From Gemmatimonadales bacterium (lineage in GTDB: Bacteria > Gemmatimonadota > Gemmatimonadetes > Gemmatimonadales > GWC2-71-9), in contig DASWII010000035.1 in the NCBI GenBank assembly GCA_036397755.1, forward strand, positions 43,049 to 107,048: 64,000 nucleotides of DNA, given 5' to 3'. The position numbers and the translations under genes are program-made. Of this stretch, positions 7,741 through 35,747 are shown piece by piece. Under the pieces are notes generated by a model. The model did no database searches. It was not told the DNA's origin and worked only from the letters and a program-made list of their open reading frames with translations. Position 1 is the stretch's first letter. The number at the start of each line of letters is the position of its first letter.

Positions 7741-9435
7741 ATGCGTTTGCGGCGGCAGGAGACCTACGACGTGTGCATCGTGGGCTCGGGCGCCGGCGGG
7801 GGGATGGCGGCGAAGGCGCTGTGCGACGCCGGCGTCAAGGTCATCATGCTCGAGGCCGGGCCGATGTGGGACAACACGAAGGACGCCGCGATGTTCAAGT
7901 GGGCGTACGACTCGCCGCGACGTGGCGCATCGACCCCCGAACGGCAATTCGGCGAGTTCGGCGCGAACCTCGGAGGGTGGTCACTCAGCGGCGAACCCTA
8001 CACGCGGGCGACCGGCACCGAGTTCGACTGGTTCCGGTCGCGCATGCTGGGCGGCCGCACCAATCACTGGGGGCGAATCTCGCTGCGCTTCGGGCCGGAC
8101 GATTTTCGCCGTAAGACGCTCGACGGCCTCGGCGACGACTGGCCCATCACCTACGACGACATCGCGCCGTACTACGATCGCGTGGACCGCCTCATCGGCG
8201 TCTTCGGCAGTCGGGAGGGCATCCCCAACCAGCCGGACGGGATCTTCCAGCCGCCGCCACAACCGCGCTGCTGGGAACTCCTGATTCAGCAAGCATCCCG
8301 CCGCTTGGATATTCCCTGCATCCCCTCGAGACTCTCGATCATCACGCGGCCGCTACATGGACGGCCGGCATGCCATTATTGTGGCCAATGCAGTCGCGGG
8401 TGTTCCACCAACGCGAACTTTACGTCCCCGAACGTGCTCATTCTCCCCACCCTCAGCTCGGGGAACTTGACCTTGCGGGTCAACGCGATGGTTCGAGAAG
8501 TGACGCACGACCGGCGCGGGCTTGCGACCGGCGTGGTGTACATCGACAAAGACTCCGGACGGGAAGAGCAGGTGCGGGCGCGCATCGTGGTCTTGGCGGC
8601 GAGCGCGTGTGAGTCCGCGCGGATCTTGCTCAATTCCCGCTCGAGCATGTTCCCTGACGGGTTGGCCAACTCCAGTGGCACCGTCGGCAAGTACCTGACG
8701 GATACGACGGGAACGGACGTGTCCGGCTTCATTCCCGCCCTGATGAACGGTATTCCACACAACGAGGACGGCGTGGGTGGGGCGCATCTGTACATGCCGT
8801 GGTGGCTGGACAACGCCACACTGGACTTTCCGCGCGGATACCATATCGAGATCTGGGGTGGGCGCGGGATGCCCGGTTACGGCTTCATGGGCAACATTCA
8901 CAACTACCCCGGCCAGGACGGCGGGTACGGCCGGGCACTCAAGGAGGACTATCGACGCTACTATGGGTCGATCGTGGGATTCTCCGGACGGGGCGAGATG
9001 GTGCCGAATGACGACTCGTACTGCGATATCGATCCCGACACCGTCGACCGGTGGGGAATCCCGGTACTACGGTTTCACTTCAAGTGGACCGATCATGAGC
9101 GCCTTCAGGTCAAACACATGCAGCAGACCTTCCGCACGCTGATCCGGCAGATGGGTGGCGAGCCATTTGGCGACATGCCGTCGGCGGAGCGCGGCTACGG
9201 CATCGCGCCGGGCGGCCGTATCATCCACGAACTCGGCGTGACACGCATGGGCAACGACTCCGCCACGTCCGTCACCAACGCCTGGTCGCAGGCGCACGAC
9301 GTCAAGAATCTCTTCGTGGCCGACGGCGGCCCTTTCGTGTCCCAAGCGGACAAGAACCCGACGTGGACGATCCTCGCCCTGGCGTGGCGCGCGGCCGATT
9401 ACATCGTCGAGCAGCGGCGAGCGGGGGCGCTATGA
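7741..9435 (+). CDS. GMC family FAD oxidoreductase (gluconate 2-dehydrogenase flavoprotein-like large subunit)
   Basis: YDVCIVGSGAGGGMAAKAL FAD-binding motif. Has a GMC C-terminal region. AAGGAGAG lies before the ATG. Confidence 0.9.
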   Translation: MRLRRQETYDVCIVGSGAGGGMAAKALCDAGVKVIMLEAGPMWDNTKDAAMFKWAYDSPRRGASTPERQFGEFGANLGGWSLSGEPYTRATGTEFDWFRSRMLGGRTNHWGRISLRFGPDDFRRKTLDGLGDDWPITYDDIAPYYDRVDRLIGVFGSREGIPNQPDGIFQPPPQPRCWELLIQQASRRLDIPCIPSRLSIITRPLHGRPACHYCGQCSRGCSTNANFTSPNVLILPTLSSGNLTLRVNAMVREVTHDRRGLATGVVYIDKDSGREEQVRARIVVLAASACESARILLNSRSSMFPDGLANSSGTVGKYLTDTTGTDVSGFIPALMNGIPHNEDGVGGAHLYMPWWLDNATLDFPRGYHIEIWGGRGMPGYGFMGNIHNYPGQDGGYGRALKEDYRRYYGSIVGFSGRGEMVPNDDSYCDIDPDTVDRWGIPVLRFHFKWTDHERLQVKHMQQTFRTLIRQMGGEPFGDMPSAERGYGIAPGGRIIHELGVTRMGNDSATSVTNAWSQAHDVKNLFVADGGPFVSQADKNPTWTILALAWRAADYIVEQRRAGAL

Positions 9436-15703: not shown

Positions 15704-16930
15704 TCACGCGACCACCCGTGCGGCGGCCCTGGGTGACGGACGGAATGCCACGGCAAACAGCCCCAGGACTACGGCGGCCATGACGGCTGGAACGATCCAG
15801 ACGATGCGCCAGTCATGCTCGAGCGCACCGACCGGTTGCGCGAGCTGATATACCTCCACGACCTGCCCCGCCACCCACGAGCCGATAAACCACCCTACAC
15901 CCAGGGTCACGAAGGCGATGAAGCCCTGCGCCGCCGCACGGATCCGTTCGCCCGCCTGCTGGTCCACATAAATCTGGCCAGTTACGAAGAAGAAGTCATA
16001 GCACACGCCATGAAGGAGAATGCCCCCGTAGAGCATCCAGATCCCGCTCTGCACATCCCCGTACGCGAAGAACACGTAGCGAAGCGCCCACGCGGCCATA
16101 CCGATCATCAGGATCCGCTTCACGCCCCAGCGCAGCAAAAACCATGGCAGAGCGATCATGAACACGATCTCGGACATCTGCCCGAACGTCATTTTGGCGG
16201 CGGGGGCCATCATCCCGGACTCGTTGAGGAAGAGGTTCGTGAATCCGTAGTAGAACTGCAGCGGAATCACGAGCAAGAACGATCCGATCAGAAAGATCGT
16301 GAACGAACGGTCCTGCATGAGTGCCAAGGCGTCCAGACCGAGGACGTCCCGCACGCGAACGGGACCACCGGCGGCTCTTGGTGGCGTATGCGGAAGCGAG
16401 AGGCAGTACAACCCCAGCACGATTGACGCCCCGGCGGCGATCCGCATCGGCCACGGCGTGGCCTCGATGCCCATGAGGCCGATGAACAGGCCCGCCACGA
16501 TCCAGCCGATCGTGCCGAGCACCCGAATGCTGGGGAAATCCTTCGCCGGATCGTCCACGTTGTGGAACGAGATCGAATTGGTCAGCGCCAACGTCGGCAT
16601 GTACAGCAGCGCGTATCCGATCAGCACGGGGTAGAATGTGCCGAAATCGCCGGCGGTCGAGACCCAGTACATCATCAGGCCCCCACCGATGTGGAGCGCC
16701 GCGAGCATCTTCTCGGTGGCGAAGAACCGGTCGGCCACCATCCCCACGAAGAACGGAGAGATCATCGCGGCGATAGCCGTGGTGCCGTACGCGAGACCGA
16801 TTTGTCCGCCTTCGAACCGGAGTGTCTGCCCGAGATAGGTGCTCATGGTGACTGCCCAGGCACCCCAGATGAAATACTGCAAGAACATCATCGCCGAGAG
16901 GCGCGTGCGAACTGCTCCGGCGTGGTGCAT
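15704..16930 (-). CDS. MFS nucleoside:H+ symporter (NupG/XapB family)
   Basis: The translation aligns by eye along its length to E. coli NupG. Examples: [63 protein letters not shown]. Confidence 0.8.
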
Positions 16931-17081: not shown

Positions 17082-18611
17082 CTAGGTGGTTGCCAATCGA
17101 CGCAGCGCCCCGCGATCGATCTTGCCGAGATGTGTCTGCGGCATGGTCTCGAGGAACACGAAGGCGCGCGGATGCTTGTACGCGGCCAAGCGCTCCTGGA
17201 CGAGCGCGCGGAGCTCGGTCTCCACCATTCCCCGGTCGCCATCGGTCACGACGAACGCCCGCGTCAGCGTGAGTCCGGTCGCGTCGGGCATCCCCATGAC
17301 GGCCGCATCGCGCACGGCCGGGTGTTCCAGGAGGCAACTCTCGACTTCCTGCGGCGCCAGCCACTTCCCGGAGACCTTCAACATGTCGTCCGCGCGACCG
17401 CAGTAGGTCACATACCCGTCCGCATCGATCGCAATCATGTCGCCCGACACGTACCATTCGCCGCGAAACGCGCCCGCCGTCTTGTCCATTTGCTGCCAGT
17501 AGCCCAGGGCCCGCGAATCTCCACGCACCCACAACGCCCCGATCTCACCCGCGCCCACCGCATGCCCGAACTCGTCGCACGCCCGCACCTCGAACCCGGG
17601 CACGACCGTACCCAGAGTGCCTGGACGCACAGCGCCCGGCCGGTTCGAGATGAAGATGTGCCACATCTCGGCGGTACCAAGGCCGTCGAGCAGTTCCACA
17701 CCGAACGTCTCGTTCCAGCGGGAGTGCAGCTCGCCAGGGAGCGCCTCGCCAGCCGACGTCGCGAGACGCAGGCTGCTGACATCCTGCTCGCGCGCCGTGG
17801 CATGACTTACCATTTGATGGACCATCGTCGGGACGTTGATCAGGATGGTCGGACGATGGGCGGCGATCTTGGCAAACAGCACGTCGGGTGTACAGCGGTC
17901 GGCAAACAGCACCGCTGTCCCGCCGACGGCAAACGGAAAGAAAAGATTCGATCCGGTCGCGTACCCGAAGAACAGCTTGGGCACGGCAATCGTGACGTCG
18001 TCCTCCGTGTAACCGATCACTCCCTTGGCATAGCACTCGGTGGTATTGGCAAACGCCCGGTGTGTCTGCACGACGGCCTTGGGCCTGCCAGTGGTCCCAC
18101 CGGAGAACAGCCAGATGGCCGCGTCGTCGCGATGGGACGGGAATGACACGAGTTCAGTGGGCGCGCTTGTGCGTTCGGCGTCGAACTCACGGTCCCCGAC
18201 AATCAACAACCGCTTCAGATGCGGGGAGGCGGTCGCGGCGGCCCTGAACGTGTCCAGCGCATCCCGCTGCACGAGTGCCGCGCTGGCGCGTGTGTACGCG
18301 AAGAAGTACTCCACCTCGTGTGCCCGGAGATGTGGGTTGACCATCACCACGACGGCCCCAATCTTCAACACGCCGAACAGGGCCGCCACATACTCCGGTC
18401 CGTCGGGGAGAGCGACGATCACCCGCTGCTCCGGCTCCACCCCTGCGGCGCGCAGCACCGCGCCGAACTGGTTGCTGAGGCATTGCACCTCGCGATAGGT
18501 CAGGGTGCCGTTGTCCGTAATGAGCGCGATGCGTGATCCGCGACCCTCGCGGATGCGAGCGTCCAGAAAATAGTCGGCGATGTTGAATTGCTCGGGTGGA
18601 ATGAACGTCAT
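17082..18611 (-). CDS. benzoate-CoA ligase family aryl-CoA ligase; probable 2-aminobenzoate (anthranilate)-CoA ligase
   Basis: FNIADYFLD..., the AMP-binding motif LFSGGTTGRPKAV, and KLFFGYATGSNLFFPFAVGGT, typical of the benzoate-CoA ligase subfamily. The substrate guess comes from neighbouring genes. Confidence 0.8.
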   Translation of the reverse strand: MTFIPPEQFNIADYFLDARIREGRGSRIALITDNGTLTYREVQCLSNQFGAVLRAAGVEPEQRVIVALPDGPEYVAALFGVLKIGAVVVMVNPHLRAHEVEYFFAYTRASAALVQRDALDTFRAAATASPHLKRLLIVGDREFDAERTSAPTELVSFPSHRDDAAIWLFSGGTTGRPKAVVQTHRAFANTTECYAKGVIGYTEDDVTIAVPKLFFGYATGSNLFFPFAVGGTAVLFADRCTPDVLFAKIAAHRPTILINVPTMVHQMVSHATAREQDVSSLRLATSAGEALPGELHSRWNETFGVELLDGLGTAEMWHIFISNRPGAVRPGTLGTVVPGFEVRACDEFGHAVGAGEIGALWVRGDSRALGYWQQMDKTAGAFRGEWYVSGDMIAIDADGYVTYCGRADDMLKVSGKWLAPQEVESCLLEHPAVRDAAVMGMPDATGLTLTRAFVVTDGDRGMVETELRALVQERLAAYKHPRAFVFLETMPQTHLGKIDRGALRRLATT

Positions 18612-18632
18612 CGGGGGAAATTGTCACCACGT

Positions 18633-19388
18633 ATGCCCGTACACCAGTTGGCCGACCTGACGTGGAACGACGCGAGCACGCTCTCGGCGGACGCCGTTTG
18701 CCTGCTTCCCATTGGGGCCCTGGAGGCGCATGGCCCTCATCTTCCGTTGCAGACTGATGTAATCATCGCGGAGGCCATGGCCCGAAACGCCGCCGGTCGC
18801 ATTGCGGGCGGTGGCCGTACCGTGCTCATCCTCCCTACCTTGGCCTACACCCCCGCTCCGTTCGCCGAGAGTTTCGCCGGAACCTTGTCGATCCACCCCG
18901 ATCACGTGGTCGGGCAGATCGTCGATATCGCTCGGGCGCTTACGGCGGTCGGGTGCAGCCGTCTGATGCTGATCAACGCACATTTCGACCCGACGCATCT
19001 GTCGGCGTTGTCGGAAGCCGAGGACATCTGCCGGCAGGAAGGCCTGCTGCAGGTCATATTCCCCAACGTCACACGCAAACCATGGGCGTCCCGCCTGGGC
19101 GCGGAGTTCGCGAGCGGGGCCTGTCATGCCGGACGCTACGAGGGTTCCATCGTGCTCGCGGCACGTCCCGACCTCGTTCATGAGGAGACCATGCGGTCGC
19201 TCGAACCCAACCACTTGTCCCTGTCGGATGCCGTCCGCGAGGGGAAGCAGACCTTCATGGAAGTGGGGGGGACGCAGGCATATTTTGGGTTTCCCGCGGA
19301 GGCCACCGCGGCCGAGGGTGAGATGTTGATCGCGACGCTTGGCCGCATCGTCGAGGAGTCACTCGACATGGCGCGGCCCTCCCCGTGA
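18633..19388 (+). CDS. creatininase-family metal amidohydrolase
   Basis: Start at ATG 18633 (MPVHQLADLTW). LLPIGALEAHGPHLPLQTDVIIAEA is the family signature region. Confidence 0.75.
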   Translation: MPVHQLADLTWNDASTLSADAVCLLPIGALEAHGPHLPLQTDVIIAEAMARNAAGRIAGGGRTVLILPTLAYTPAPFAESFAGTLSIHPDHVVGQIVDIARALTAVGCSRLMLINAHFDPTHLSALSEAEDICRQEGLLQVIFPNVTRKPWASRLGAEFASGACHAGRYEGSIVLAARPDLVHEETMRSLEPNHLSLSDAVREGKQTFMEVGGTQAYFGFPAEATAAEGEMLIATLGRIVEESLDMARPSP

Positions 19389-20170
19389 GCTCACCCGCCG
19401 GCAGCGCACGGACGGCCCTCGTGACGGGCGGCGGTCGGGGAATCGGAGCGGCCATTGCCAGGCGGCTGACCGCCGAAGGCATCGCCGTGGTGGTGTCCGC
19501 CCGCACGGAAGCCGAGATCGAGGCGGTCGCTGCGGAACTGGTTGCCGGAGGCGCCGAGGCGGTCGCCATCGCGTGCGATGTCACGGACGCCGCCCAGGTG
19601 GTGGAGCTGGCCGAGCGTGCAATCGCACGGTTTGGAGCGGTGGACATTCTCATCAACAACGCGGGGGTTGCGGACTCCGCTCCGGTCCATCGCATCACGT
19701 TGGAGAACTGGAACCGGCTCTTGGCGATCAACGCCACGGGTCCATTCTTGCTGACGCAGGCCATTCTTCCCACCATGCTCGCGTCGGGTTGGGGTCGGGT
19801 CGTCAACATCGCCTCGGTCGCGGGACTCACGGGAGCGAAGTACATCGCCGCATATACCGCGTCGAAGCACGCCCTGATCGGTTTCACGCGGGCGCTGGCG
19901 GCGGAGGTAGCCGGCCGTGGCGTGACCGTCAACGCTGTGTGCCCTGGTTATGTCGACACGCCGATGACCGATCAGTCGGTCGCGCGGATCGTCGAGAAGA
20001 CCGGGAGGGAGTCGGAAGCCGTGCGACAGGCCATGCGTGATCGGTCGCCGCAGGGTCGTCTCATCGCACCGGACGAGGTGGCTCACGTCGTGGCCGGACT
20101 CTGCGACGAGCGCGCCGGGGGGATCAACGGCCAGGCGATCGTCATCGATGGCGGAGCAACGCACGCATGA
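19385..20170 (+). CDS. short-chain dehydrogenase/reductase (SDR)
   Basis: GTGA overlap with the upstream stop. TGGGRGIGAAIA cofactor motif and YTASKHAL catalytic motif. Confidence 0.85.
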   Translation: MSSPAGSARTALVTGGGRGIGAAIARRLTAEGIAVVVSARTEAEIEAVAAELVAGGAEAVAIACDVTDAAQVVELAERAIARFGAVDILINNAGVADSAPVHRITLENWNRLLAINATGPFLLTQAILPTMLASGWGRVVNIASVAGLTGAKYIAAYTASKHALIGFTRALAAEVAGRGVTVNAVCPGYVDTPMTDQSVARIVEKTGRESEAVRQAMRDRSPQGRLIAPDEVAHVVAGLCDERAGGINGQAIVIDGGATHA

Positions 20171-20586
20171 CCTTCGAGATCATCAATCCGGAGGCGTTGG
20201 GAGCGCCGCGGGGGTGGAACAACGGCATGCTGGGGCCCACGGGCGGGCGGATCCTCCTTGTGGCCGGCCAGTCGGCGGCTGGGTCCGACGGTTCCATGCC
20301 GCACGGCATGGCCGCCCAGTGGGAGCGAGCCCTCGAGAAGATCGTGTCGGTCGTCCGCGCCGCCGGTGGCGCGCCGACCGATATTGGCCGGCTCACGATT
20401 TACGTCACGGACGTCGAGGCGTATCGTACCGGATTGCGGGATATCGGCGCGGCCTATCGTCGCGTCATGGGCACACACTTCCCGGCGATGGCCCTGCTAC
20501 ATGTGCGAGGACTGCTCGAGCCGGGAGCACTCGTGGAAATCGAAGCGACCGCCTGGATAACCGCCGACGCGGCGACGGAGTCTTGA
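20167..20586 (+). CDS. RidA/YjgF family reactive-intermediate (enamine/imine) deaminase-like protein
   Basis: 139 aa with ATGA overlap. The C-terminal ...LVEIEATA pattern is typical of RidA. Confidence 0.75.
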   Translation: MTFEIINPEALGAPRGWNNGMLGPTGGRILLVAGQSAAGSDGSMPHGMAAQWERALEKIVSVVRAAGGAPTDIGRLTIYVTDVEAYRTGLRDIGAAYRRVMGTHFPAMALLHVRGLLEPGALVEIEATAWITADAATES

Positions 20587-20588
20587 GC

Positions 20589-21389
20589 ATGGCCATCTCA
20601 CCAACCACGTTCCTCTACGATCTCGACGCCACCACCTCGGTCGCGACGATCACGCTCAACCGACCGGAGCGCCTGAACGCGCTCACCTTCGACGTTTATG
20701 CAGAGCTGCGCGATACGATGAAAGCGCTAGACACCGAACCCGGTGTGCGCGCCATTGTGATGACCGGCGCGGGTCGCGGATTCTGCTCCGGCGGCGACGT
20801 CGAGCACATCATCGGCGAGCTGTTCGCGCGCGATCATGTCGGCCTGCGCGAGTTCACCAGAATGACGTGCGATCTGATTTACAACATGCGCGCCTGCCGG
20901 CGTCCGATCGTCGGCGCCCTCAACGGCACGGTGGCCGGCGCCGGGGCCGTGATCGCGACCGCGTGCGACGTGCGCATCGCCGCCGAGTTCGCCAAGATCG
21001 CGTACCTCTTCACCAAGGTGGGCCTCTCGGGCGCGGACATGGGCGCCGCGTGGATGCTGCCGCGTATCGTCGGGTTCGGGCGAGCCACCGAGTTATTGAT
21101 GTCCGGCGAGTTCATCTCCGCCGAAGAGGCGCATCGCATTGGGTTGTACAATCGAGTCGTTCCGCAGGATCGGGTGCTCGTAGAAGCGCGCGGTGTTGCC
21201 GAGCGTCTTGCGCGCGGTCCGTCGCACGCGCTGGGCGTCACGAAGGCAGCCTTGAATTGCGAAGCCACGTTGGATCTCGCCACCGCGCTCGAGCTCGAGG
21301 CCCATGCGCAAGCTGACTGCATGCTGAGCCCCAACTTCCGTGAAGCCTACGAAGCCTTTCGCTCGAAGCGCGACGCCGTGTTCGTGTAG
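20589..21389 (+). CDS. enoyl-CoA hydratase/isomerase (crotonase) family
   Basis: Start at ATG 20589 inside the longer track ORF. ITLNRPERLNAL, GAGRGFCSGGD, ALNGTVAGAGAVIA. Confidence 0.85.
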   Translation: MAISPTTFLYDLDATTSVATITLNRPERLNALTFDVYAELRDTMKALDTEPGVRAIVMTGAGRGFCSGGDVEHIIGELFARDHVGLREFTRMTCDLIYNMRACRRPIVGALNGTVAGAGAVIATACDVRIAAEFAKIAYLFTKVGLSGADMGAAWMLPRIVGFGRATELLMSGEFISAEEAHRIGLYNRVVPQDRVLVEARGVAERLARGPSHALGVTKAALNCEATLDLATALELEAHAQADCMLSPNFREAYEAFRSKRDAVFV

Positions 21390-21395
21390 CGCCCG

Positions 21396-22550
21396 ATGCT
21401 CGACGTCCATCCCGTGCGCGCGTTCCTCACCAAGCGGCACATCGCCTTTGCCGCCGCGGCCGATCGGTTTGCGACGACCGACATCGCGGCGCTCCCGGGG
21501 GTCGGTGAGGATGAGGCGGCGAGGGTTCAGGCGCGCCAGGTCCTGAAGCTCCTCGGGGGTGCATGGCTACAGCCGATACGCGACCAAGATCTCCGCGCAT
21601 GCTGTCTGATGCGCGAGGCCCTGGCCGCGGCGTCTCCGTTGGCCGACGCCGTCTTCGCGCTCCAAGCGTTGGGAGCCACCCCGCTCGTCTTGGCGGGCAC
21701 CGACGAACAGCGTGCGCGATGGCTTGAACCGGCGCTGGCCGGCACCGCCCTCGCCGCCTTCGCAATGACCGAACCCGGCGCCGGCTCGGACGTCGCCTCG
21801 CTCAACACCCGCGCCGAGGAGAGTGGAGAGGGATTCGTACTGAACGGCGCCAAGAGCTTCATCTCCAACGCGGGCATCGCCGACTTCTATGTAGTGTTCG
21901 CGACGCTGGATCCGTCCCAGCGCCATCGCGGCATCGCGTGCTTTCTCGTTCCGGCCGACACCCCTGGCCTCCGTTTCGTCGGGCCCCAGGTGATGAGTGC
22001 TCCCCACCCGCTGGGGGACATCGCGTTCAACGACTGCCGGCTACCGCGCTCAGCGTTGCTCGCGCCGGCGGGGGAGGGTTTCAAGCTCGGACTTGCGACG
22101 TTGGACCGCCTGCGCGCGACGGTCGCCGCCGCCGCCTGCGGCATGGCCGCCCGCGCGCTCCGGGAAGCTCTCGATCACGCCAAGCGGCGTCACCAGTTCG
22201 GCAAGCCCCTGGGGGAGTTCCAGCTCGTGCAAGACAAAGTCGCGCGGATGGCGATCGATCTCACGGCGGCGCGTCTGCTGACGTACCGCGCGGCCTGGGA
22301 ACGCGACGAAGGCGCCGAGCGCGTCACGCTGGAATCGGCCATGGCCAAGGCCTTCGCCACGGAGGCGGCCCAGCGTGTCATCGATCACGCGGTCCAGATC
22401 TTGGGCGGAACCGGCGTGCTGGCCAGCCATCCGGTCGAGCGACTCTACCGGAGCATTCGGGCGCTCAGAATCTACGAGGGAACGACCGAGATCCAGCACC
22501 TGATAATCGCCGGCAAGCTCCTGGACGCCGTGAACGATCCGCACGCATGA
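21396..22550 (+). CDS. acyl-CoA dehydrogenase
   Basis: [11 protein letters not shown], the GxKxFISNAG region and the YEGTTEIQ C-terminal motif. Confidence 0.9.
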
Positions 22551-24802
22551 GGATCGTCGCGGTCGGCGGCGGACCAGCCGCACTTTATCTGGCCATCCTG
22601 CTCAAGCGCGATGACCCACGACACGACATCGTGGTGTACGAGCGCAATCGCCTGGACGATACGTTCGGGTTCGGGGTGGTATTCTCCGATGCTACTGCAC
22701 ACAACCTCGCCGAGGCGGAGCCCGAAGTTCATGCGGCCATCTCCCGGCAGTTCTTCCGCTGGGATGACATCCACATTCACTTCCGCGATCAGATCCTGAC
22801 GTCCACCGGACATGGATTCAGCGGGCTGGCGCGTACAACGCTCCTGGATGTGCTCGCCGCGCGCGCCCGCGAACTTGGCGTCGACCTCCGGTTTCAGGCG
22901 GAGATCACGGACGTCGACTCGTTGCGAGACTGTGACCTGCTGGTCGCCGCGGACGGCGCGAGCAGTACCGTACGCGAGCGGTACGCCGACCACTTCCAGC
23001 CGACGATCGACTGGCGTCTCAATCGCTTCGTGTGGCTGGGCACGACCAAGCCGTTTCCGGCTTTCACGTTCTACTTCAAGGAAACGCCGCATGGACTCTG
23101 GCGAGTCCACGCCTATCAATACGCCCCGGGTCATTCCACGTTCATCGTGGAGGGAACGGAACGCACGTGGTGCGCGTCGGGAATGGCGGAGGCGTCGGAG
23201 TCCGACGCCTTGGCGTATTGCGAGGATCTCTTCGGTCCGGAGCTAAACGGTCACCGGTTGCTGACCAACAAGTCCGTCTGGCGGCGTTTTCCCACGATCC
23301 GGAACGCGCGCTGGTGGCACGAAAACATGGTGCTCATCGGTGACGCCGCCCACACGGCACACTTCTCGATCGGCTCGGGCACCAAGCTCGCGATGGAGGA
23401 CGGTGTGGCGCTCGCGGCCGCCTTGCGCGCCCACCCCGGAGATGTGCGGGCGGCGCTCATGGCATATGAAGAGGAGCGACGGCCCGCCGTGGCGAGCGCC
23501 CAACGGGCCGCGCAGGTGAGTCTGCAGTGGTTCGAGGACACCGAACGCTACATGGATCTGGAGCCGATTCAGTTCGGCTTCAACCTCCTCACTCGCAGCC
23601 TGCGCGTCACGCACGAAAACCTGCGGGAGCGCGATCCCGCCTACGTGCGTGAGATCGACCGATGGTTCGCCGACAGTGCCGGGCGTCACGCCGGACCCTC
23701 GGCGCCCTCGACGCCGGTGCGGCCGCCCATGTTCACGCCGTTCGCGCTGCGCGACATGGTGCTCGAGAATCGCGTGGTCGTTTCTCCGATGTGCCAGTAC
23801 TCCGCCGAAGACGGCACGCCAAACGAATGGCACCTCGTGCATCTGGGTGCGCGCGCCATTGGCGGCGCCGGGCTCGTGTTCGCCGAAATGACCGATGTGA
23901 GCCCCGAGGCACGCATTTCTCCTTGGTGCACGGGGATGTACAAGCCAGAGCACGTGGAGGCCTGGCGGCGCATCGTGGACTTCGTCCATGAGAACTCCTA
24001 TGCCAAGATCGCCCTCCAGCTGGGGCACGCGGGCCGGAAAGCGGCAACCAAGCGCATGTGGGAGGGTGACGTGCAGCCGTTGGAGCACGGCGGCTGGCCA
24101 ATCGTCTCCGCGTCACCCATCCCCTATTTCGATCACAGTCCGGTCCCTCGGGAGATGACCCGCGAGGATATGCTCGGGGTCGTGCGGGAGTTCGAACGCG
24201 CGACCACTATGGCGAACGACGCGGGGTTTGACATGCTCGAGGTGCACTTCGCTCACGGGTACCTGCTCGCGAGCTTCGTGTCGCCCCTGACCAATCTGCG
24301 TGACGACGATTACGGTGGCACGTTGGACAATCGACTCCGGTTTCCGCTGGAGGTGTTCGACGCCGTACGCGCCAAGTGGCCCCGACACAAACCCATGTCC
24401 GTCCGCATCTCCGCGGTCGACTGGGCGCCGGGCGGGATGGAGGCGGGGGATGCCGTGGAGGTAGCCAGACGGCTTAAGGACCACGACTGTGACATCGTGG
24501 ACGTTTCAGCGGGCCAGACCGTTCCCCATCAGCAACCGGTGTATGGGCGGCTCTTCCAGACGCCTTTTGCCGATCGCATACGACGGGAAATCGGACTCGC
24601 AACCATGGCCGTCGGAAACATCTCGTCGTTCACGGACGTGAACACCATCCTCGCCGCCGGAAGAGCGGACCTGTGCATGCTCGCCCGAGCGCACCTGTGG
24701 GATCCGTATTGGACTCGCCACGCGGCGTACGAACTCGGCGTCGACCTGCCCTGGCCGGAGCAGTACGCAACGCTCAACAGCTACACCCCGCGATTCAAGT
24801 GA
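22547..24802 (+). CDS. fused FAD monooxygenase + Old-Yellow-Enzyme-like NADH:flavin reductase (2-aminobenzoyl-CoA monooxygenase/reductase-like; the salicylyl-CoA 5-hydroxylase family shares this architecture)
   Basis: ATGA overlap with the ACAD stop. N-terminus [18 protein letters not shown] (GxGxxG). C-terminal half shows [12 protein letters not shown]...QLGHAGRKA...HFAHGYLL, the OYE signature. 751 aa. Confidence 0.8.
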
Positions 24803-24873: not shown

Positions 24874-25644
24874 ATGCCCACCTACTCCGAATACCTGAAG
24901 GTCGACGCGCTCCTGTCCCTACAGGAACCCTTGTCCGATGGGCCAGAGCATGACGAAACGCTGTTCATCGTCATTCACCAGGTGTACGAGCTGTGGTTCA
25001 AGGAAGTCCTACACGAGCTCGACTATCTCAAGCGTCTGCTTCACGCCAACGATCGTCCGCGGGCGGTCCACACGCTCAAACGCGTCCTCACGATTCTGAA
25101 GACACTCGTCGCGCAGATCGACGTGCTGGAGACCATGACACCGCTGGAGTTCCTCTCGTTCCGCGATCGCCTGGAATCCGGCAGTGGATTTCAGTCCTAC
25201 CAGTTCCGTGAGTTGGAGTTTGTACTCGGCGCGAAGCACCGCTGGGCGCTCGATCATTTTCCGGAGGGCTCGACGGCTCGGGCAAACCTACATCGGCGGT
25301 TCCAGGAACCGACGCTGTGGGACGCGCTGCTGGACCACCTCCGCCTGAGCGGCTATGCGGTCCATCGACGTGCCGATGTGACGACACCGATCGAACCCGA
25401 CGCCGCGAACAAGCAGGCACTCATCCAGGCGTACCGCACCGATCCCGGCGCTGGAGAGCTGTGCGAGCGGTTCGTGGATCTGGACGAAGGCGTGCAGGAA
25501 TGGCGTTATCGTCACGTCAAGATGGTGCAGCGCACGATTGGCACCAAACGGGGGACCGGCGGTTCCACCGGCGCCGAGTATCTCGTCACAACGCTGCTCA
25601 AACCCGTGTTCCCGGATCTGTGGGACATCCGCACCGAACTCTGA
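24874..25644 (+). CDS. kynA: tryptophan 2,3-dioxygenase
   Basis: YSEYLKVDALLSLQEP..DE.LFIVIHQVYELWFK, plus the C-terminal GTGGSTGAEYL motif typical of bacterial TDO. Confidence 0.85.
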   Translation: MPTYSEYLKVDALLSLQEPLSDGPEHDETLFIVIHQVYELWFKEVLHELDYLKRLLHANDRPRAVHTLKRVLTILKTLVAQIDVLETMTPLEFLSFRDRLESGSGFQSYQFRELEFVLGAKHRWALDHFPEGSTARANLHRRFQEPTLWDALLDHLRLSGYAVHRRADVTTPIEPDAANKQALIQAYRTDPGAGELCERFVDLDEGVQEWRYRHVKMVQRTIGTKRGTGGSTGAEYLVTTLLKPVFPDLWDIRTEL

Positions 25645-26843
25645 TGCCCCGCCCCTCGCTATCGTCGTTGCGCGCATCCAAGAACGCCCTCGCGCCACAC
25701 TACTCGCGGTTTCGTGTGGCGGAACGGCTCCTGCTGACCGGGCACTCCCACCAAGCGTGGCCCGATGTCGGGTTCGAGGCGCAGCAGGCAGCGTGGACCG
25801 ATGCGGCGGAGTTGGTCGACGACAAGTGGCAGCGCGCGTTCGCCAAGGCCGACCGCGTCCGCGAGGCCCTCGCCGCGCTACTCGGCGACACGACCGGCAC
25901 CATCGCCCTGGGCAGCAATACCCACGACCTTCTGGTACGGCTCCTGTCGGCGTTGCCCTTGCGGCAAAGGGCTCGCATCGTGACGACCGACGGAGAGTTT
26001 CACACCGTGCGGCGGCAGCTGGACCGGCTGGCGGAGGAAGGCATCGAGATCACGCGCATCTCGCACGAGCCCGCCGCTGCCGTGGCTGAGCGGCTGGCCG
26101 CCGCCGTGAACGACCGTACGACGCTGGTCGTCGTTTCCAGTGTCTTCTACCTCAATGCCCACATCGCCCCCGACCTCGACGTGGTGGCTCACGCGTGCAG
26201 TCGCGTGGGGGCCGCGCTGCTGGTCGATGCCTACCACACCCTCAATGCTGTCCCGTTCTCGCTCGCCGACCAGGCACTGGAGCAGGCGTTTGTGGTCGGG
26301 GGTGGCTACAAGTACTGCCAACTGGGTGAGGGCAACTGCTTCCTACGACTTCCTCCCGATTGCACCCTGCGACCCGTGATCACCGGTTGGTTCAGCGAGT
26401 TCGCCGATCTGGCGGAGGGGCAGCGTTCCGACGAGGTGGCATACGGCGCGGGGCCGGCGCGCTTTGCCGGGGCCACGTACGATCCAACGAGTCACTACCG
26501 AGCCGCGGCGGTGCTGGACTTCTTCGGCGAGCACGATCTCACACCGGCGTTTCTGCGTGAGGTGTCGCAACATCAGGTTGGGACGCTGGCCGCGGCGTTC
26601 GATGCGCTCGATCTTGACCCGGCGGTCGTCACGCGGGATCGGTCCGTTCCCCTGGAGCAATTGGGCGGGTTCCTTGCGCTCCGGGCTCCTAGGGCTGCGT
26701 GGCTCTCCGCCGGACTCAGGCAGCGCGGTGTGTGGACGGACTATCGCCGAGACGTGCTACGCTTTGGGCCTGCTCCGTACCTGTCGGACGCCCAACTCAC
26801 GGACGCGATGGATGCCTTGAGGGCCACGGTCAACGACAGCTGA
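25644..26843 (+). CDS. kynU: kynureninase-family class V PLP enzyme
   Basis: ATG 25644 overlaps the kynA stop. By eye it aligns to Pseudomonas KynU around GGGYKYCQLGEG (PLP-Lys region), ITGWFSEF and the C-terminal LRFGPAPYL. Confidence 0.65.
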   Translation: MPRPSLSSLRASKNALAPHYSRFRVAERLLLTGHSHQAWPDVGFEAQQAAWTDAAELVDDKWQRAFAKADRVREALAALLGDTTGTIALGSNTHDLLVRLLSALPLRQRARIVTTDGEFHTVRRQLDRLAEEGIEITRISHEPAAAVAERLAAAVNDRTTLVVVSSVFYLNAHIAPDLDVVAHACSRVGAALLVDAYHTLNAVPFSLADQALEQAFVVGGGYKYCQLGEGNCFLRLPPDCTLRPVITGWFSEFADLAEGQRSDEVAYGAGPARFAGATYDPTSHYRAAAVLDFFGEHDLTPAFLREVSQHQVGTLAAAFDALDLDPAVVTRDRSVPLEQLGGFLALRAPRAAWLSAGLRQRGVWTDYRRDVLRFGPAPYLSDAQLTDAMDALRATVNDS

Positions 26844-26846
26844 ACG

Positions 26847-26868
26847 TGGGCGTCTCACGCCTATCTTT
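26847..26868. terminator. compact hairpin between convergent genes (possible bidirectional terminator)
   Basis: UGGGCGU-CUC-ACGCCUA (7 bp including one G-U pair) followed by UCUUU on the + strand. It overlaps the DUF1080 stop codon. Confidence 0.3.
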
Positions 26869-33957: not shown

Positions 33958-34155
33958 TTGCGCGACGTGACTCCACGGAAGTCGTTTCCGTTACGCATAG
34001 ACCCCAAAGTCTATGCCGCGATCGAGCGGTGGGCAGCCGACGAATTGCGCAGCGTGAACGGACAGATCGAGTTTCTCTTGAGGCAGGTGCTCTTGCGTGC
34101 CGGCCGGCTCGGCGACAACGACGTCGAGTCATTGGGGAAAAGGGGGGAATCGTGA
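33958..34155 (+). CDS. Arc/MetJ-type ribbon-helix-helix DNA-binding protein
   Basis: [37 protein letters not shown] fits the RHH pattern (beta strand followed by two helices). Start is TTG 33958 or GTG 33967. The stop overlaps the next gene's GTG. Confidence 0.6.
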
Positions 34156-35747
34156 AAGTGCTGGGATTGGCCATTATCGGGCTGTGCTGCTGGAACGCAT
34201 CGGCCGTGGCGCAGGTCGGCCAGGACGCCGCCATGATGCGGATGTACCAGGCTGAGAGTGAAGTCGGGCGGGAGTCGTTCACGCGCGACGCACGGCACTT
34301 CGAGAGTACCGTGGAGATCCCCGTGCTCCAGGCGCGTTTGATCCACCGTACGGAATTCGGCCCGGACGGGCGCTGGACCGCCTTCGAGAGTCGAGTGTAT
34401 CTGCTCGCGAACGACAGTCTGGTGGCCGAGTACTGGGCCACCGCGGCGGGGGATTCGGTGCGCTGGCGCCAGCTTCGCGGCGGGCAGGACACCTCCGGCG
34501 TGGCAGCGGGCCGGCCATCCGCCGTCGTGCCCAGCCAGACCACCGCGGTGTTCGCGGACATCGCCTATCGTGTCGCCGGACGAGATACGATCTGGGAGCT
34601 GTGGTCGCCGGAGAGCGGTGCGGTGGTGCAGGCCACGATCCGGCATGGCACGAATACGGTCGAGTTCACGCTGGGGCCGTTGCCTCTCACCGTAAAGCTC
34701 CGGCCGGACGGGCGCGTGGGGGAGATCGAGGTTCTCCCGCAACGCCTGCGGGTCGAACGGGTCGAGCCCAACTTGCCGCTCGATCCGCTCCCCGGATTGG
34801 AACGCCCGAAACCGGACTACGCGCCGCCTCCGGGCGCTCCGTACACGGCCACCGAAGTGCGCATCCCGGTCACTTCCGAGAGCGGCGACGCGTTTGAGCT
34901 GGCCGGTACGCTCACCGTGCCCACCACTGGGCGACCGCCGTTTCCTGCAGCCGTGACCATCACGGGTTCGGGCGGGCAAGACCGCGACGAGAACTTGTGG
35001 CCGCTGGTGCCGGACTACAGACCGTACGCGGAGATCGCCGACCGGCTGGCGCACGCGCGGATCGCGGTGCTGCGCGTGGACGACCGCGGTGTCGGCGCGT
35101 CCGGGGGCGGGAACAGCGCGCCGACGACGCGTGATTTCGCCGGTGACGTCAGAGCGCAGTTGGCGTGGCTTCGCGCGCGCCCGGAGATCAACGGGAAGCT
35201 GCTGGCGCTGATCGGGCACAGCGAGGGAGGCGTGATCGGTCCGATCGTGGCGGCGGAAGATCGGGAGCTTGCCGCCTTGGTCATCATGGCTGGATCATCA
35301 CAAACCGGCGAAGAGATCATCCACTACCAGGTGACGAGACCGATCGAGACCGCCCCCGGGCTCACCGACGCGCAGCGCGCGGAGCTGCGCGACTCGATCT
35401 TGGCCGAGGCGATGACGACCCTTGCAGCCGCCAACCCATGGATGCGGTACTTCTGGACCTACGATCCCCTCGTTGCCGCCCGCCAAGTGACTCAGCCGGT
35501 GCTGGTGCTGCACGGTGAGTACGACCGGCAGGTCACCGTGGAACAGGCGACGGAACTCGCGGATGCGATCCGCGAGGGTGGCAACCGGGATGTCACTGTC
35601 CGCATCTTCCCGAAGCTCAACCACCTGTTCCTCATGAGCCTCGAGGACGGGTCTCCCCACGAGTACATGGCCATCGAGGATGCGTCGCTACCGAGCGAAG
35701 TACTGGACACGATCGTCACGTGGCTGTCGACCAAACTGCGTCCGTGA
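34152..35747 (+). CDS. secreted alpha/beta hydrolase with an N-terminal non-catalytic domain
   Basis: GTGA overlap with the RHH stop. Signal [21 protein letters not shown]; GHSEGG nucleophile elbow; LHGEYDRQV and NHLF near the C-terminus. Confidence 0.75.

Follow-up and report, generated by a model that had tools for sequence, protein, structure and literature searches.

A creatininase-family gene paired with an aryl-CoA ligase in a Gemmatimonadales tryptophan cluster: a candidate ligase-coupled aryl-deformylase

Tryptophan breakdown via kynurenine requires a formamidase. In Gemmatimonadota, Acidobacteriota, Myxococcota and Eisenbacteria, which are abundant in soil, no known formamidase lies beside the kynurenine genes kynA and kynU, and one may ask which enzyme does this work. 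The question is raised by a stretch of 64,000 nucleotides from a Gemmatimonadales bacterium (contig DASWII010000035.1, positions 43,049 to 107,048; this whole stretch is called the window hereafter). In it, genes for tryptophan 2,3-dioxygenase (TDO) and kynureninase (KynU) stand at the end of an operon whose first gene encodes a member of the creatininase family of metallo-amidohydrolases. An initial annotation of this DNA proposed that the creatininase-family protein is the N-formylkynurenine formamidase.

In this report, we examined the gene, its operon and its neighbours in related genomes. Our main finding is that the gene is tied to an aryl-CoA ligase far more tightly than to TDO and KynU. 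The reading that we favour, with a probability of roughly 0.45, assigns its product to the upper pathway as an aryl-formamidase, the odds being split about evenly between N-formylkynurenine and N-formylanthranilate as the substrate. The idea of a formamidase is thus a good hypothesis and not an established fact, and the data suggest refining 'N-formylkynurenine formamidase' to 'ligase-coupled aryl-deformylase'.

The gene and its cluster

The gene in question is the following:

18633-19388, + strand: predicted creatininase-family metallo-amidohydrolase (PF02633, NCBIfam, AlphaFold2 (AF2) fold, invariant residues)

The open reading frame (ORF), read from the sequence, has 251 codons, from an ATG at 18633 to an in-frame TGA at 19386-19388. 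Its family, named in the initial annotation, was confirmed: the Pfam model Creatininase (PF02633) is the sole Pfam match of the 251-residue product (E 1.1e-48; 166 bits for a gathering cut-off of 31.3), with an alignment that runs from residue 7 to 237 of the protein and from position 1 to 231 of the 238-position model. The curated models of named family members score lower than they require. The top one, the MftE equivalog TIGR03964, gives 112 bits (cut-off 172), the creatinine amidohydrolase equivalog TIGR04448 gives 85.7 bits (cut-off 235), and the model for the 3-dehydro-scyllo-inosose hydrolase IolN, NF041098, is a weak but significant match at 37.9 bits (cut-off 245). Because none of these three scores comes near its cut-off, the protein is assigned on its model scores to an unnamed subfamily.

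An AF2 model built on 46 sequences (predicted local distance difference test (pLDDT) score 93.8, predicted template-modelling (pTM) score 0.92) has the creatininase fold: in a Foldseek search of the PDB, the top 26 matches were all creatininase-family chains (1J2T, 3A6x, 3LUB and 3NO4), with template-modelling (TM) scores of 0.68-0.77; the significant matches, at TM 0.70-0.77, are confined to this family. Seven residues (E31, H33, D42, H117, D119, H165 and E170) are invariant across 46 orthologs, and the first six line up in the alignment with the motifs of creatininase, whose metal ligands and catalytic His we take to be E34, H36, D45, H120, E122 and H178; at the position of the presumed ligand Glu122, the window protein has an Asp. 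The gene is real, and its product is very probably an active metallo-hydrolase.

Known relatives offer the family and the fold rather than the context. The creatinine amidohydrolase of Pseudomonas putida (1J2T, 1Q3K) has the same fold (TM 0.70-0.75) and 23-25% identity, but the context in the window is not creatinine metabolism. MftE, the mycofactocin peptidyl-dipeptidase, belongs to the same family and acts on a peptide; no mycofactocin (mft) gene was found among the window ORFs scanned by Pfam. A plasmid collection contained no close homolog, the best match (32% identical) being MftE, and therefore the Arthrobacter-type catabolic plasmids that it includes are without this subfamily. Metagenomes contain a protein that is 99% identical, and homologs in the thousands. 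Our literature search found nothing tying the subfamily to anthranilate, kynurenine or aryl-CoA ligases. The subfamily is an uncharacterised, abundant branch of a known enzyme family, set within a distinct variant of an incompletely solved pathway.

The gene opens an eight-gene, closely packed operon on the + strand and overlaps the next gene as GTGA, as first described, and it diverges from the gene of an aryl-CoA ligase. The ligase, the spacer and the other genes of the cluster are:

17082-18611, - strand: aryl-CoA ligase in the benzoate-CoA ligase family that probably acts on anthranilate (TIGR02262, PDB matches)
18612-18632, no strand: 21-bp spacer that separates the start codon of the ligase gene from that of the divergent creatininase gene (read from the sequence)
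19385-20170, + strand: short-chain dehydrogenase/reductase (SDR) oxidoreductase (adh_short E 3e-66); its GTG start overlaps the creatininase stop as GTGA
20167-20586, + strand: RidA/L-PSP family protein, probable enamine/imine deaminase (PF01042 E 6.6e-14); ATGA overlap with the SDR stop
20589-21389, + strand: enoyl-CoA hydratase/crotonase (ECH) of PRK08258 type (NF006107, 357 bits, cut-off 330); 2-bp gap after RidA
21396-22550, + strand: acyl-CoA dehydrogenase (ACAD; Acyl-CoA_dh domains); 6-bp gap after ECH
22547-24802, + strand: fusion of a flavin adenine dinucleotide (FAD) monooxygenase and an old yellow enzyme (OYE) reductase, of 2-aminobenzoyl-CoA monooxygenase/reductase (ACMR) type (NF006101, 1123 bits, cut-off 1078); ATGA overlap with the ACAD stop
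24874-25644, + strand: TDO (PF03301 E 1.9e-63); 71-bp gap after ACMR
25644-26843, + strand: divergent KynU (KYNU_C, PDB match); TGATG overlap with the TDO stop
26845-26859, + strand: terminator-like hairpin directly after KynU, the last gene (consensus scan only; 2 sites found, 1.4 expected in shuffles)

The ligase scores 479 bits with TIGR02262 (cut-off 375), and its best PDB matches are the benzoate-CoA ligase 2V7B and the anthranilate-CoA ligase 4WV3. A scan of 18300-19000 detected no sigma-70-like promoter; either the ligase and creatininase genes have their promoters within adjacent coding sequence, or their mRNAs are leaderless. KynU barely passes the Pfam threshold for KYNU_C (28.8 bits, cut-off 27) and gives no match to the NCBIfam kynureninase models; its best PDB match, over the full length, is the kynureninase 1QZ9 (E 2e-12). 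The ACMR fusion is of the 2-aminobenzoyl-CoA monooxygenase/reductase (salicylyl-CoA 5-hydroxylase) type.

With an ACMR fusion, an aryl-CoA ligase, SDR, ECH, ACAD and RidA, the window has the gene set of an abm-type catabolic cluster. The cluster encodes a route from tryptophan to anthranilate, then to 2-aminobenzoyl-CoA and a beta-oxidation-like sequence, of the Azoarcus evansii type. The pathway of this type has been reviewed (PMC4539516); its steps after ACMR are still unresolved (PMC3534580), and GapMind automated annotation leaves it out (PMC9007349). The cluster thus defines a distinct and very common variant of a poorly understood aerobic 2-aminobenzoyl-CoA pathway. RidA recurs in the ACMR clusters examined from Proteobacteria (three) and a haloarchaeon (one), and is an obvious candidate for the enzyme that deaminates the enamine formed by ACMR. 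It had been overlooked when the creatininase-family protein was called the only unassigned hydrolase of the cluster, a statement that has to be corrected accordingly.

Conserved neighbours in related genomes

A scan with one genome per species gave 80 creatininase loci at 47-58% identity, nearly all from metagenome-assembled genomes, of Gemmatimonadota, Acidobacteriota, Eisenbacteria, Polyangiales/Myxococcota and Planctomycetota. Neighbours were counted by tblastn with the window proteins, and not from GC3 ORF calling, which is noisy in very GC-rich loci. The ligase gene adjoins the creatininase gene in 67 of the 70 loci that have enough upstream sequence, and the divergent pair was seen in 71 loci, the two alignments lying a median of 73 bp apart. 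The set of fully flanked loci (36, with at least 9.5 kb on each side) gave the following counts:

Ligase: 33 of 36
RidA: 30 of 36
SDR: 29 of 36
ECH: 29 of 36
ACAD: 26 of 36
ACMR: 26 of 36
KynU: 17 of 36
TDO: 16 of 36

TDO and KynU were never seen without ACMR in related creatininase loci. The converse view was taken from close homologs of the window TDO (62-72% identity), around which 80 metagenome loci were collected; 41 of these loci have at least 1.5 kb upstream. Among these 41, ACMR lies directly upstream of TDO in 17; the other 24 stand alone, mostly as TDO-KynU pairs.

A search of the full library returned 123 representative clusters at E <= 1e-30 and revealed a sister clade in Polyangia/Myxococcales, whose creatininase and ligase are respectively 41-46% and 46-50% identical to those of the window. 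Its gene order is different: TDO-KynU-RidA-ECH-ACAD-OYE(only)-ligase-creatininase, with neither an SDR nor an FAD-monooxygenase domain, the OYE-only protein having 437-499 residues (our loci L178, 2394-10753; L179, 1-10762; L174, 62-8759). The pair of ligase and creatininase persists. In four of the five sister-clade loci the end of the ligase gene and the start of the creatininase gene share 4 bp; the fifth consists of these two genes alone, which share 1 bp. Because the pairing is kept in a clade arranged so differently, the coupling to the ligase is, on this gene-order evidence, older than either order. A kynurenine gene is present in four of the five loci, the full TDO-KynU pair being clear in two, and the TDO and KynU proteins are only 27-30% identical to those of the window. 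This low identity suggests that the kynurenine genes joined the two types of cluster independently, each time without a formamidase.

More distant relatives in Chloroflexota (about 40% identity) lie beside genes for AcnX and a cyclic-di-AMP receptor, with no ligase. They mark the edge of the ligase-linked group, and are uninformative on function.

The missing formamidase and the clusters without the gene

No formamidase of KynB type or of alpha/beta-hydrolase type had been recognised in the initial annotation, and dedicated searches bear this out. A Pfam scan of about 50 window ORFs gave no match to the Cyclase family (KynB type) and no hydrolase of kynurenine formamidase (KFA) type. Three query proteins (KynB from Limnohabitans, and alpha/beta hydrolases of KFA type from Azospirillum and Aminobacter) gave nothing better than E 0.4 in tblastn searches of the whole window. 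With the same queries, no homolog was found in the 160 loci centred on creatininase (80) or TDO (80), nor in the sister-clade loci, about 170 related loci in total, and Pfam scans of the ORFs in the gaps between genes and beside TDO and KynU in related loci returned only unrelated genes. The one alpha/beta hydrolase to be noted, an S9/S15-like protein of 572 residues at 34029-35747, lies 7 kb downstream, outside the cluster, and is not similar to KFA-type hydrolases. The creatininase-family protein itself falls outside both the KynB/cyclase family and the alpha/beta-hydrolase KFA class by Pfam, fold and tblastn.

The abm cluster of A. evansii and its relatives has in common with the window the ACMR fusion, SDR, ECH, ACAD, RidA and an aryl-CoA ligase. 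Compared to the proteobacterial abm-type clusters, the window adds the creatininase gene and TDO/KynU, and is without the hotdog thioesterase, MarR and the AbmG-type ligase. The ACMR clusters of Ralstonia, Paracoccus and Aminobacter follow the order ACMR-SDR-(MarR)-ECH-ACAD-thioesterase-RidA, with a ligase in addition; none of those that we examined has the creatininase gene. The SDR, ECH, ACAD and ACMR of the window are 51-55% identical to those of the Ralstonia cluster (SDR 55%, ACAD 53%), whereas the ligases of the two clusters are only 33% identical, and the window has no homolog of the hotdog thioesterase. Because clusters with such similar enzymes lack the gene, the lower pathway does not, on this comparison, need the creatininase. 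The benzoate-CoA-ligase-type ligase and the creatininase form a module distinct from the proteobacterial ligase and thioesterase. Once the lower-pathway genes common with Proteobacteria are subtracted, TDO, KynU, ligase and creatininase are left as the upper pathway, in which TDO, KynU and ligase cover every function but one, deformylation.

What accompanies the kynurenine genes where the creatininase gene is absent can be seen on plasmid pAM01 of Aminobacter sp. MSH1 (L169, 9174-18762). In this ACMR cluster of proteobacterial type, kynA overlaps the ligase gene by 4 bp, kynU is about 5 kb away, and a divergent gene adjoining the ligase encodes an alpha/beta hydrolase that is 65% identical to one in a kynU-kynA-hydrolase operon of Azospirillum (L171, 5774-6607). 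The pAM01 hydrolase carries HGGYW and GHSAGG motifs, which we take to be typical of eukaryote-type kynurenine formamidases. Here, kynurenine genes seem to have been joined to the anthraniloyl-CoA pathway independently, and a gene of apparent formamidase type accompanies them and occupies, relative to the ligase, the same position as the creatininase gene. Such a complementary pattern (creatininase clades without a known formamidase, pAM01 with an alpha/beta hydrolase) favours a formamidase role for the creatininase-family protein.

On another plasmid, from Aminobacter niigataensis (L167), a cysteine-hydrolase (isochorismatase-like) gene at 8280-8828 lies directly upstream of ACMR, a further accessory hydrolase beside such a cluster, and kynU is 7 kb away.

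Candidate reactions

Our favoured reading is that the predicted metal-dependent amidohydrolase works alongside the anthranilate-CoA ligase of benzoate-CoA-ligase type: TDO would leave a formyl group on the aromatic amine, and the creatininase-family enzyme would remove it. Archaeal ArfB is a formamidase of riboflavin biosynthesis. BrbF (SMc02977) of Sinorhizobium meliloti serves the same biosynthesis and, first annotated as a creatininase, was shown experimentally to be a creatininase-family formamidase that converts AFRPP, a formylamino-pyrimidine, to DARoPP and formate, the formyl group being removed from an aromatic-ring amine (PMC9478397). It gives substance to the earlier suggestion that deformylation is plausible in this family. 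The bond that it cleaves is of the type found in N-formylkynurenine and N-formylanthranilate; its substrate, however, is a pyrimidine nucleotide, its context is riboflavin and not aromatic catabolism as in the window, and it has neither ligase nor kynurenine genes beside it. The window protein is only about 28% identical to creatininase-family proteins encoded on the S. meliloti megaplasmids, none of which was shown to be BrbF. The proposed reaction (EC 3.5.1.9, arylformamidase) would be shared with KynB and the AFMID/Bna7-type formamidases, which have unrelated folds and no sequence similarity to the window protein. The genes of KynB and of the alpha/beta KFA enzymes adjoin kynA and kynU (kynB-kynU-kynA in Limnohabitans, kynU-kynA-hydrolase in Azospirillum), whereas the window gene adjoins a CoA ligase.

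The substrate and the order of steps are what we infer from this arrangement. From classical enzymology, kynureninase is known to accept N-formylkynurenine. It is conceivable that it acts first, yielding N-formylanthranilate, a recognised tryptophan metabolite and proposed bacterial intermediate, from which the deformylase would free anthranilate directly ahead of the ligase. The near-invariable pairing with the ligase gene suggests N-formylanthranilate as the substrate, and a deformylase placed one step later fits the linkage at least as well as one acting on N-formylkynurenine. The fullest form of the proposal, in which the enzyme is the founder of a third arylformamidase class, creatininase-folded and not orthologous to the other two, and acts after kynureninase on N-formylanthranilate, is an attractive proposition that we nevertheless hold to be rather unlikely. 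The route would then be re-ordered as TDO, kynureninase, deformylase and CoA ligase, would feed a CoA-dependent, non-oxygenolytic degradation of the ring, and would be common among the uncultured Gemmatimonadota, Acidobacteriota and Myxococcota of soils. Should the ligase-coupled creatininase-fold enzyme fill the formamidase gap, it would be the third unrelated enzyme family for this step, and might show that deformylation is possible after kynureninase.

Several observations weigh against a formamidase. In the fully flanked loci, TDO and KynU lie within 10 kb in just 16-17 of 36 (about 45%), compared to 33 for the ligase; the co-occurrence with kynA and kynU that was initially expected therefore exists, but the links to the ligase and to the CoA operon are far tighter. 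ACMR is present with no kynurenine gene within 10 kb in nine loci, five Polyangiales loci retain only ligase and creatininase, and nowhere does the creatininase gene directly adjoin TDO or KynU. It is translationally coupled instead to the SDR of the lower pathway, the 4-bp overlap being available in 39 of 61 related loci. No creatininase gene was found in any of the 24 stand-alone TDO(-KynU) loci of related organisms, over flanks of about 199 kb. In these lineages a formamidase never comes along with the kynurenine module, and the creatininase is part of the ligase module. In addition, the argument from complementary patterns counts only three recruitment events, and the sequence displays no feature specific to formamide substrates, its nearest curated model being that of MftE, below cut-off. 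The initial annotation had named linkage to CoA-thioester steps rather than to kynA and kynU as a result that would count against it, and this is found in part, in that the gene persists by the ligase without kynurenine genes within 10 kb. What stands of the formamidase interpretation is the hole in the pathway, the precedent of BrbF and the contrast with proteobacterial clusters devoid of creatininase; what does not is a linkage to the kynurenine genes as such.

These observations leave room for other functions. The substrate could be one of the CoA thioesters that arise in the lower pathway; the enzyme might, for example, open a cyclic diketone hydrolytically, as the creatininase-family IolN does on a diketo-inositol. 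The gene heads the CoA-thioester operon, with the overlap with SDR just described, and RidA, ECH, ACAD and ACMR accompany it (26-30 of 36 loci) oftener than TDO and KynU do; IolN is among its NCBIfam matches, weak but significant, and the part of the pathway beyond ACMR, for which cyclohexanedione-carboxyl-CoA has been detected in Arthrobacter (PMC3534580), leaves space for such a step. We nonetheless consider a lower-pathway role unlikely: the proteobacterial clusters have lower-pathway enzymes that are 51-55% identical but not the gene, where clusters are fragmented the creatininase keeps company with the ligase rather than with ACMR, ECH or ACAD, the gene persists in the sister clade in the absence of SDR and the monooxygenase domain, and RidA and ECH already supply a deaminase and a ring hydrolase. 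Alternatively, a general aryl-amide amidase would form with the ligase a 'release and activate' pair, freeing anthranilate, or some other aromatic acid, from conjugates of N-acyl or carboxamide type that are unrelated to tryptophan (candidate substrates are N-acetyl- and other N-acyl-anthranilates, and anthranilamide). Pairs of ligase and creatininase with no kynurenine gene or ACMR nearby (L052, L063, L069, L070, L074 and L172) fit this function, as does the arrangement in L069 and L074, where the gene is flanked by those of an alpha/beta hydrolase and an aldehyde dehydrogenase. Anthranilate has many sources, among them N-acetylanthranilate when quinaldine is degraded (PMC3534580). A search of the clusters without TDO for another conserved feeder gene, however, found none; the kynurenine genes are the only recurrent upstream genes (about 45% of loci in the window clade, four of five in the sister clade), which makes a general amidase quite improbable.

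The absence of a thioesterase homolog from 78 of the 80 creatininase loci, and the presence of a thioesterase without creatininase in the proteobacterial clusters, where the ligase differs in parallel (33% identity), raise one more possibility, namely that the creatininase stands in for the hotdog thioesterase and rescues CoA from dead-end thioesters such as 5-hydroxyanthraniloyl-CoA. We know of no thioesterase chemistry for the creatininase fold, and both genes occur together in two Planctomycetota loci, L041 and L079, in the latter side by side, so that a straight replacement is unlikely and the whole explanation has very little probability in our eyes. The A. evansii cluster presumably has neither gene. 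The remainder of the probability falls to some other or unknown function.

Some features of the related loci are worth recording in their own right. In L069 and L074 (5980-12598, Polyangiaceae), ECH, a glyoxalase/VOC protein and the ligase lie on one strand, and the alpha/beta hydrolase, the creatininase (4-bp overlap) and the aldehyde dehydrogenase on the other; neither ACMR nor a kynurenine gene is found within 10 kb. On a 6.45-Mb Gemmatimonadota-like contig (L081, 16259-18398), the genes after the operon encode a 3-hydroxyacyl-CoA dehydrogenase and then a PurU-like formyltetrahydrofolate deformylase (ACT and Formyl_trans_N domains); no KynU is found within 10 kb, and a longer TDO (377 residues) lies upstream of the ligase. 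In the window, 151 bp downstream of the ligase and on the same strand, a gene at 15704-16930 (-) encodes a major facilitator superfamily (MFS) transporter of the nucleoside:H+ symporter family; because it is conserved in none of the 80 related loci, it is probably not a member of the pathway. Finally, about 10 of the 80 loci contain an additional OYE-only gene (about 480 residues, Oxidored_FMN) between or after ACAD and ACMR (L012, 14134-15579, with equivalents in L017, L019, L020, L026, L031, L036 and L044), and L082 seems to carry one gene for the OYE half and another for the FAD-monooxygenase half.

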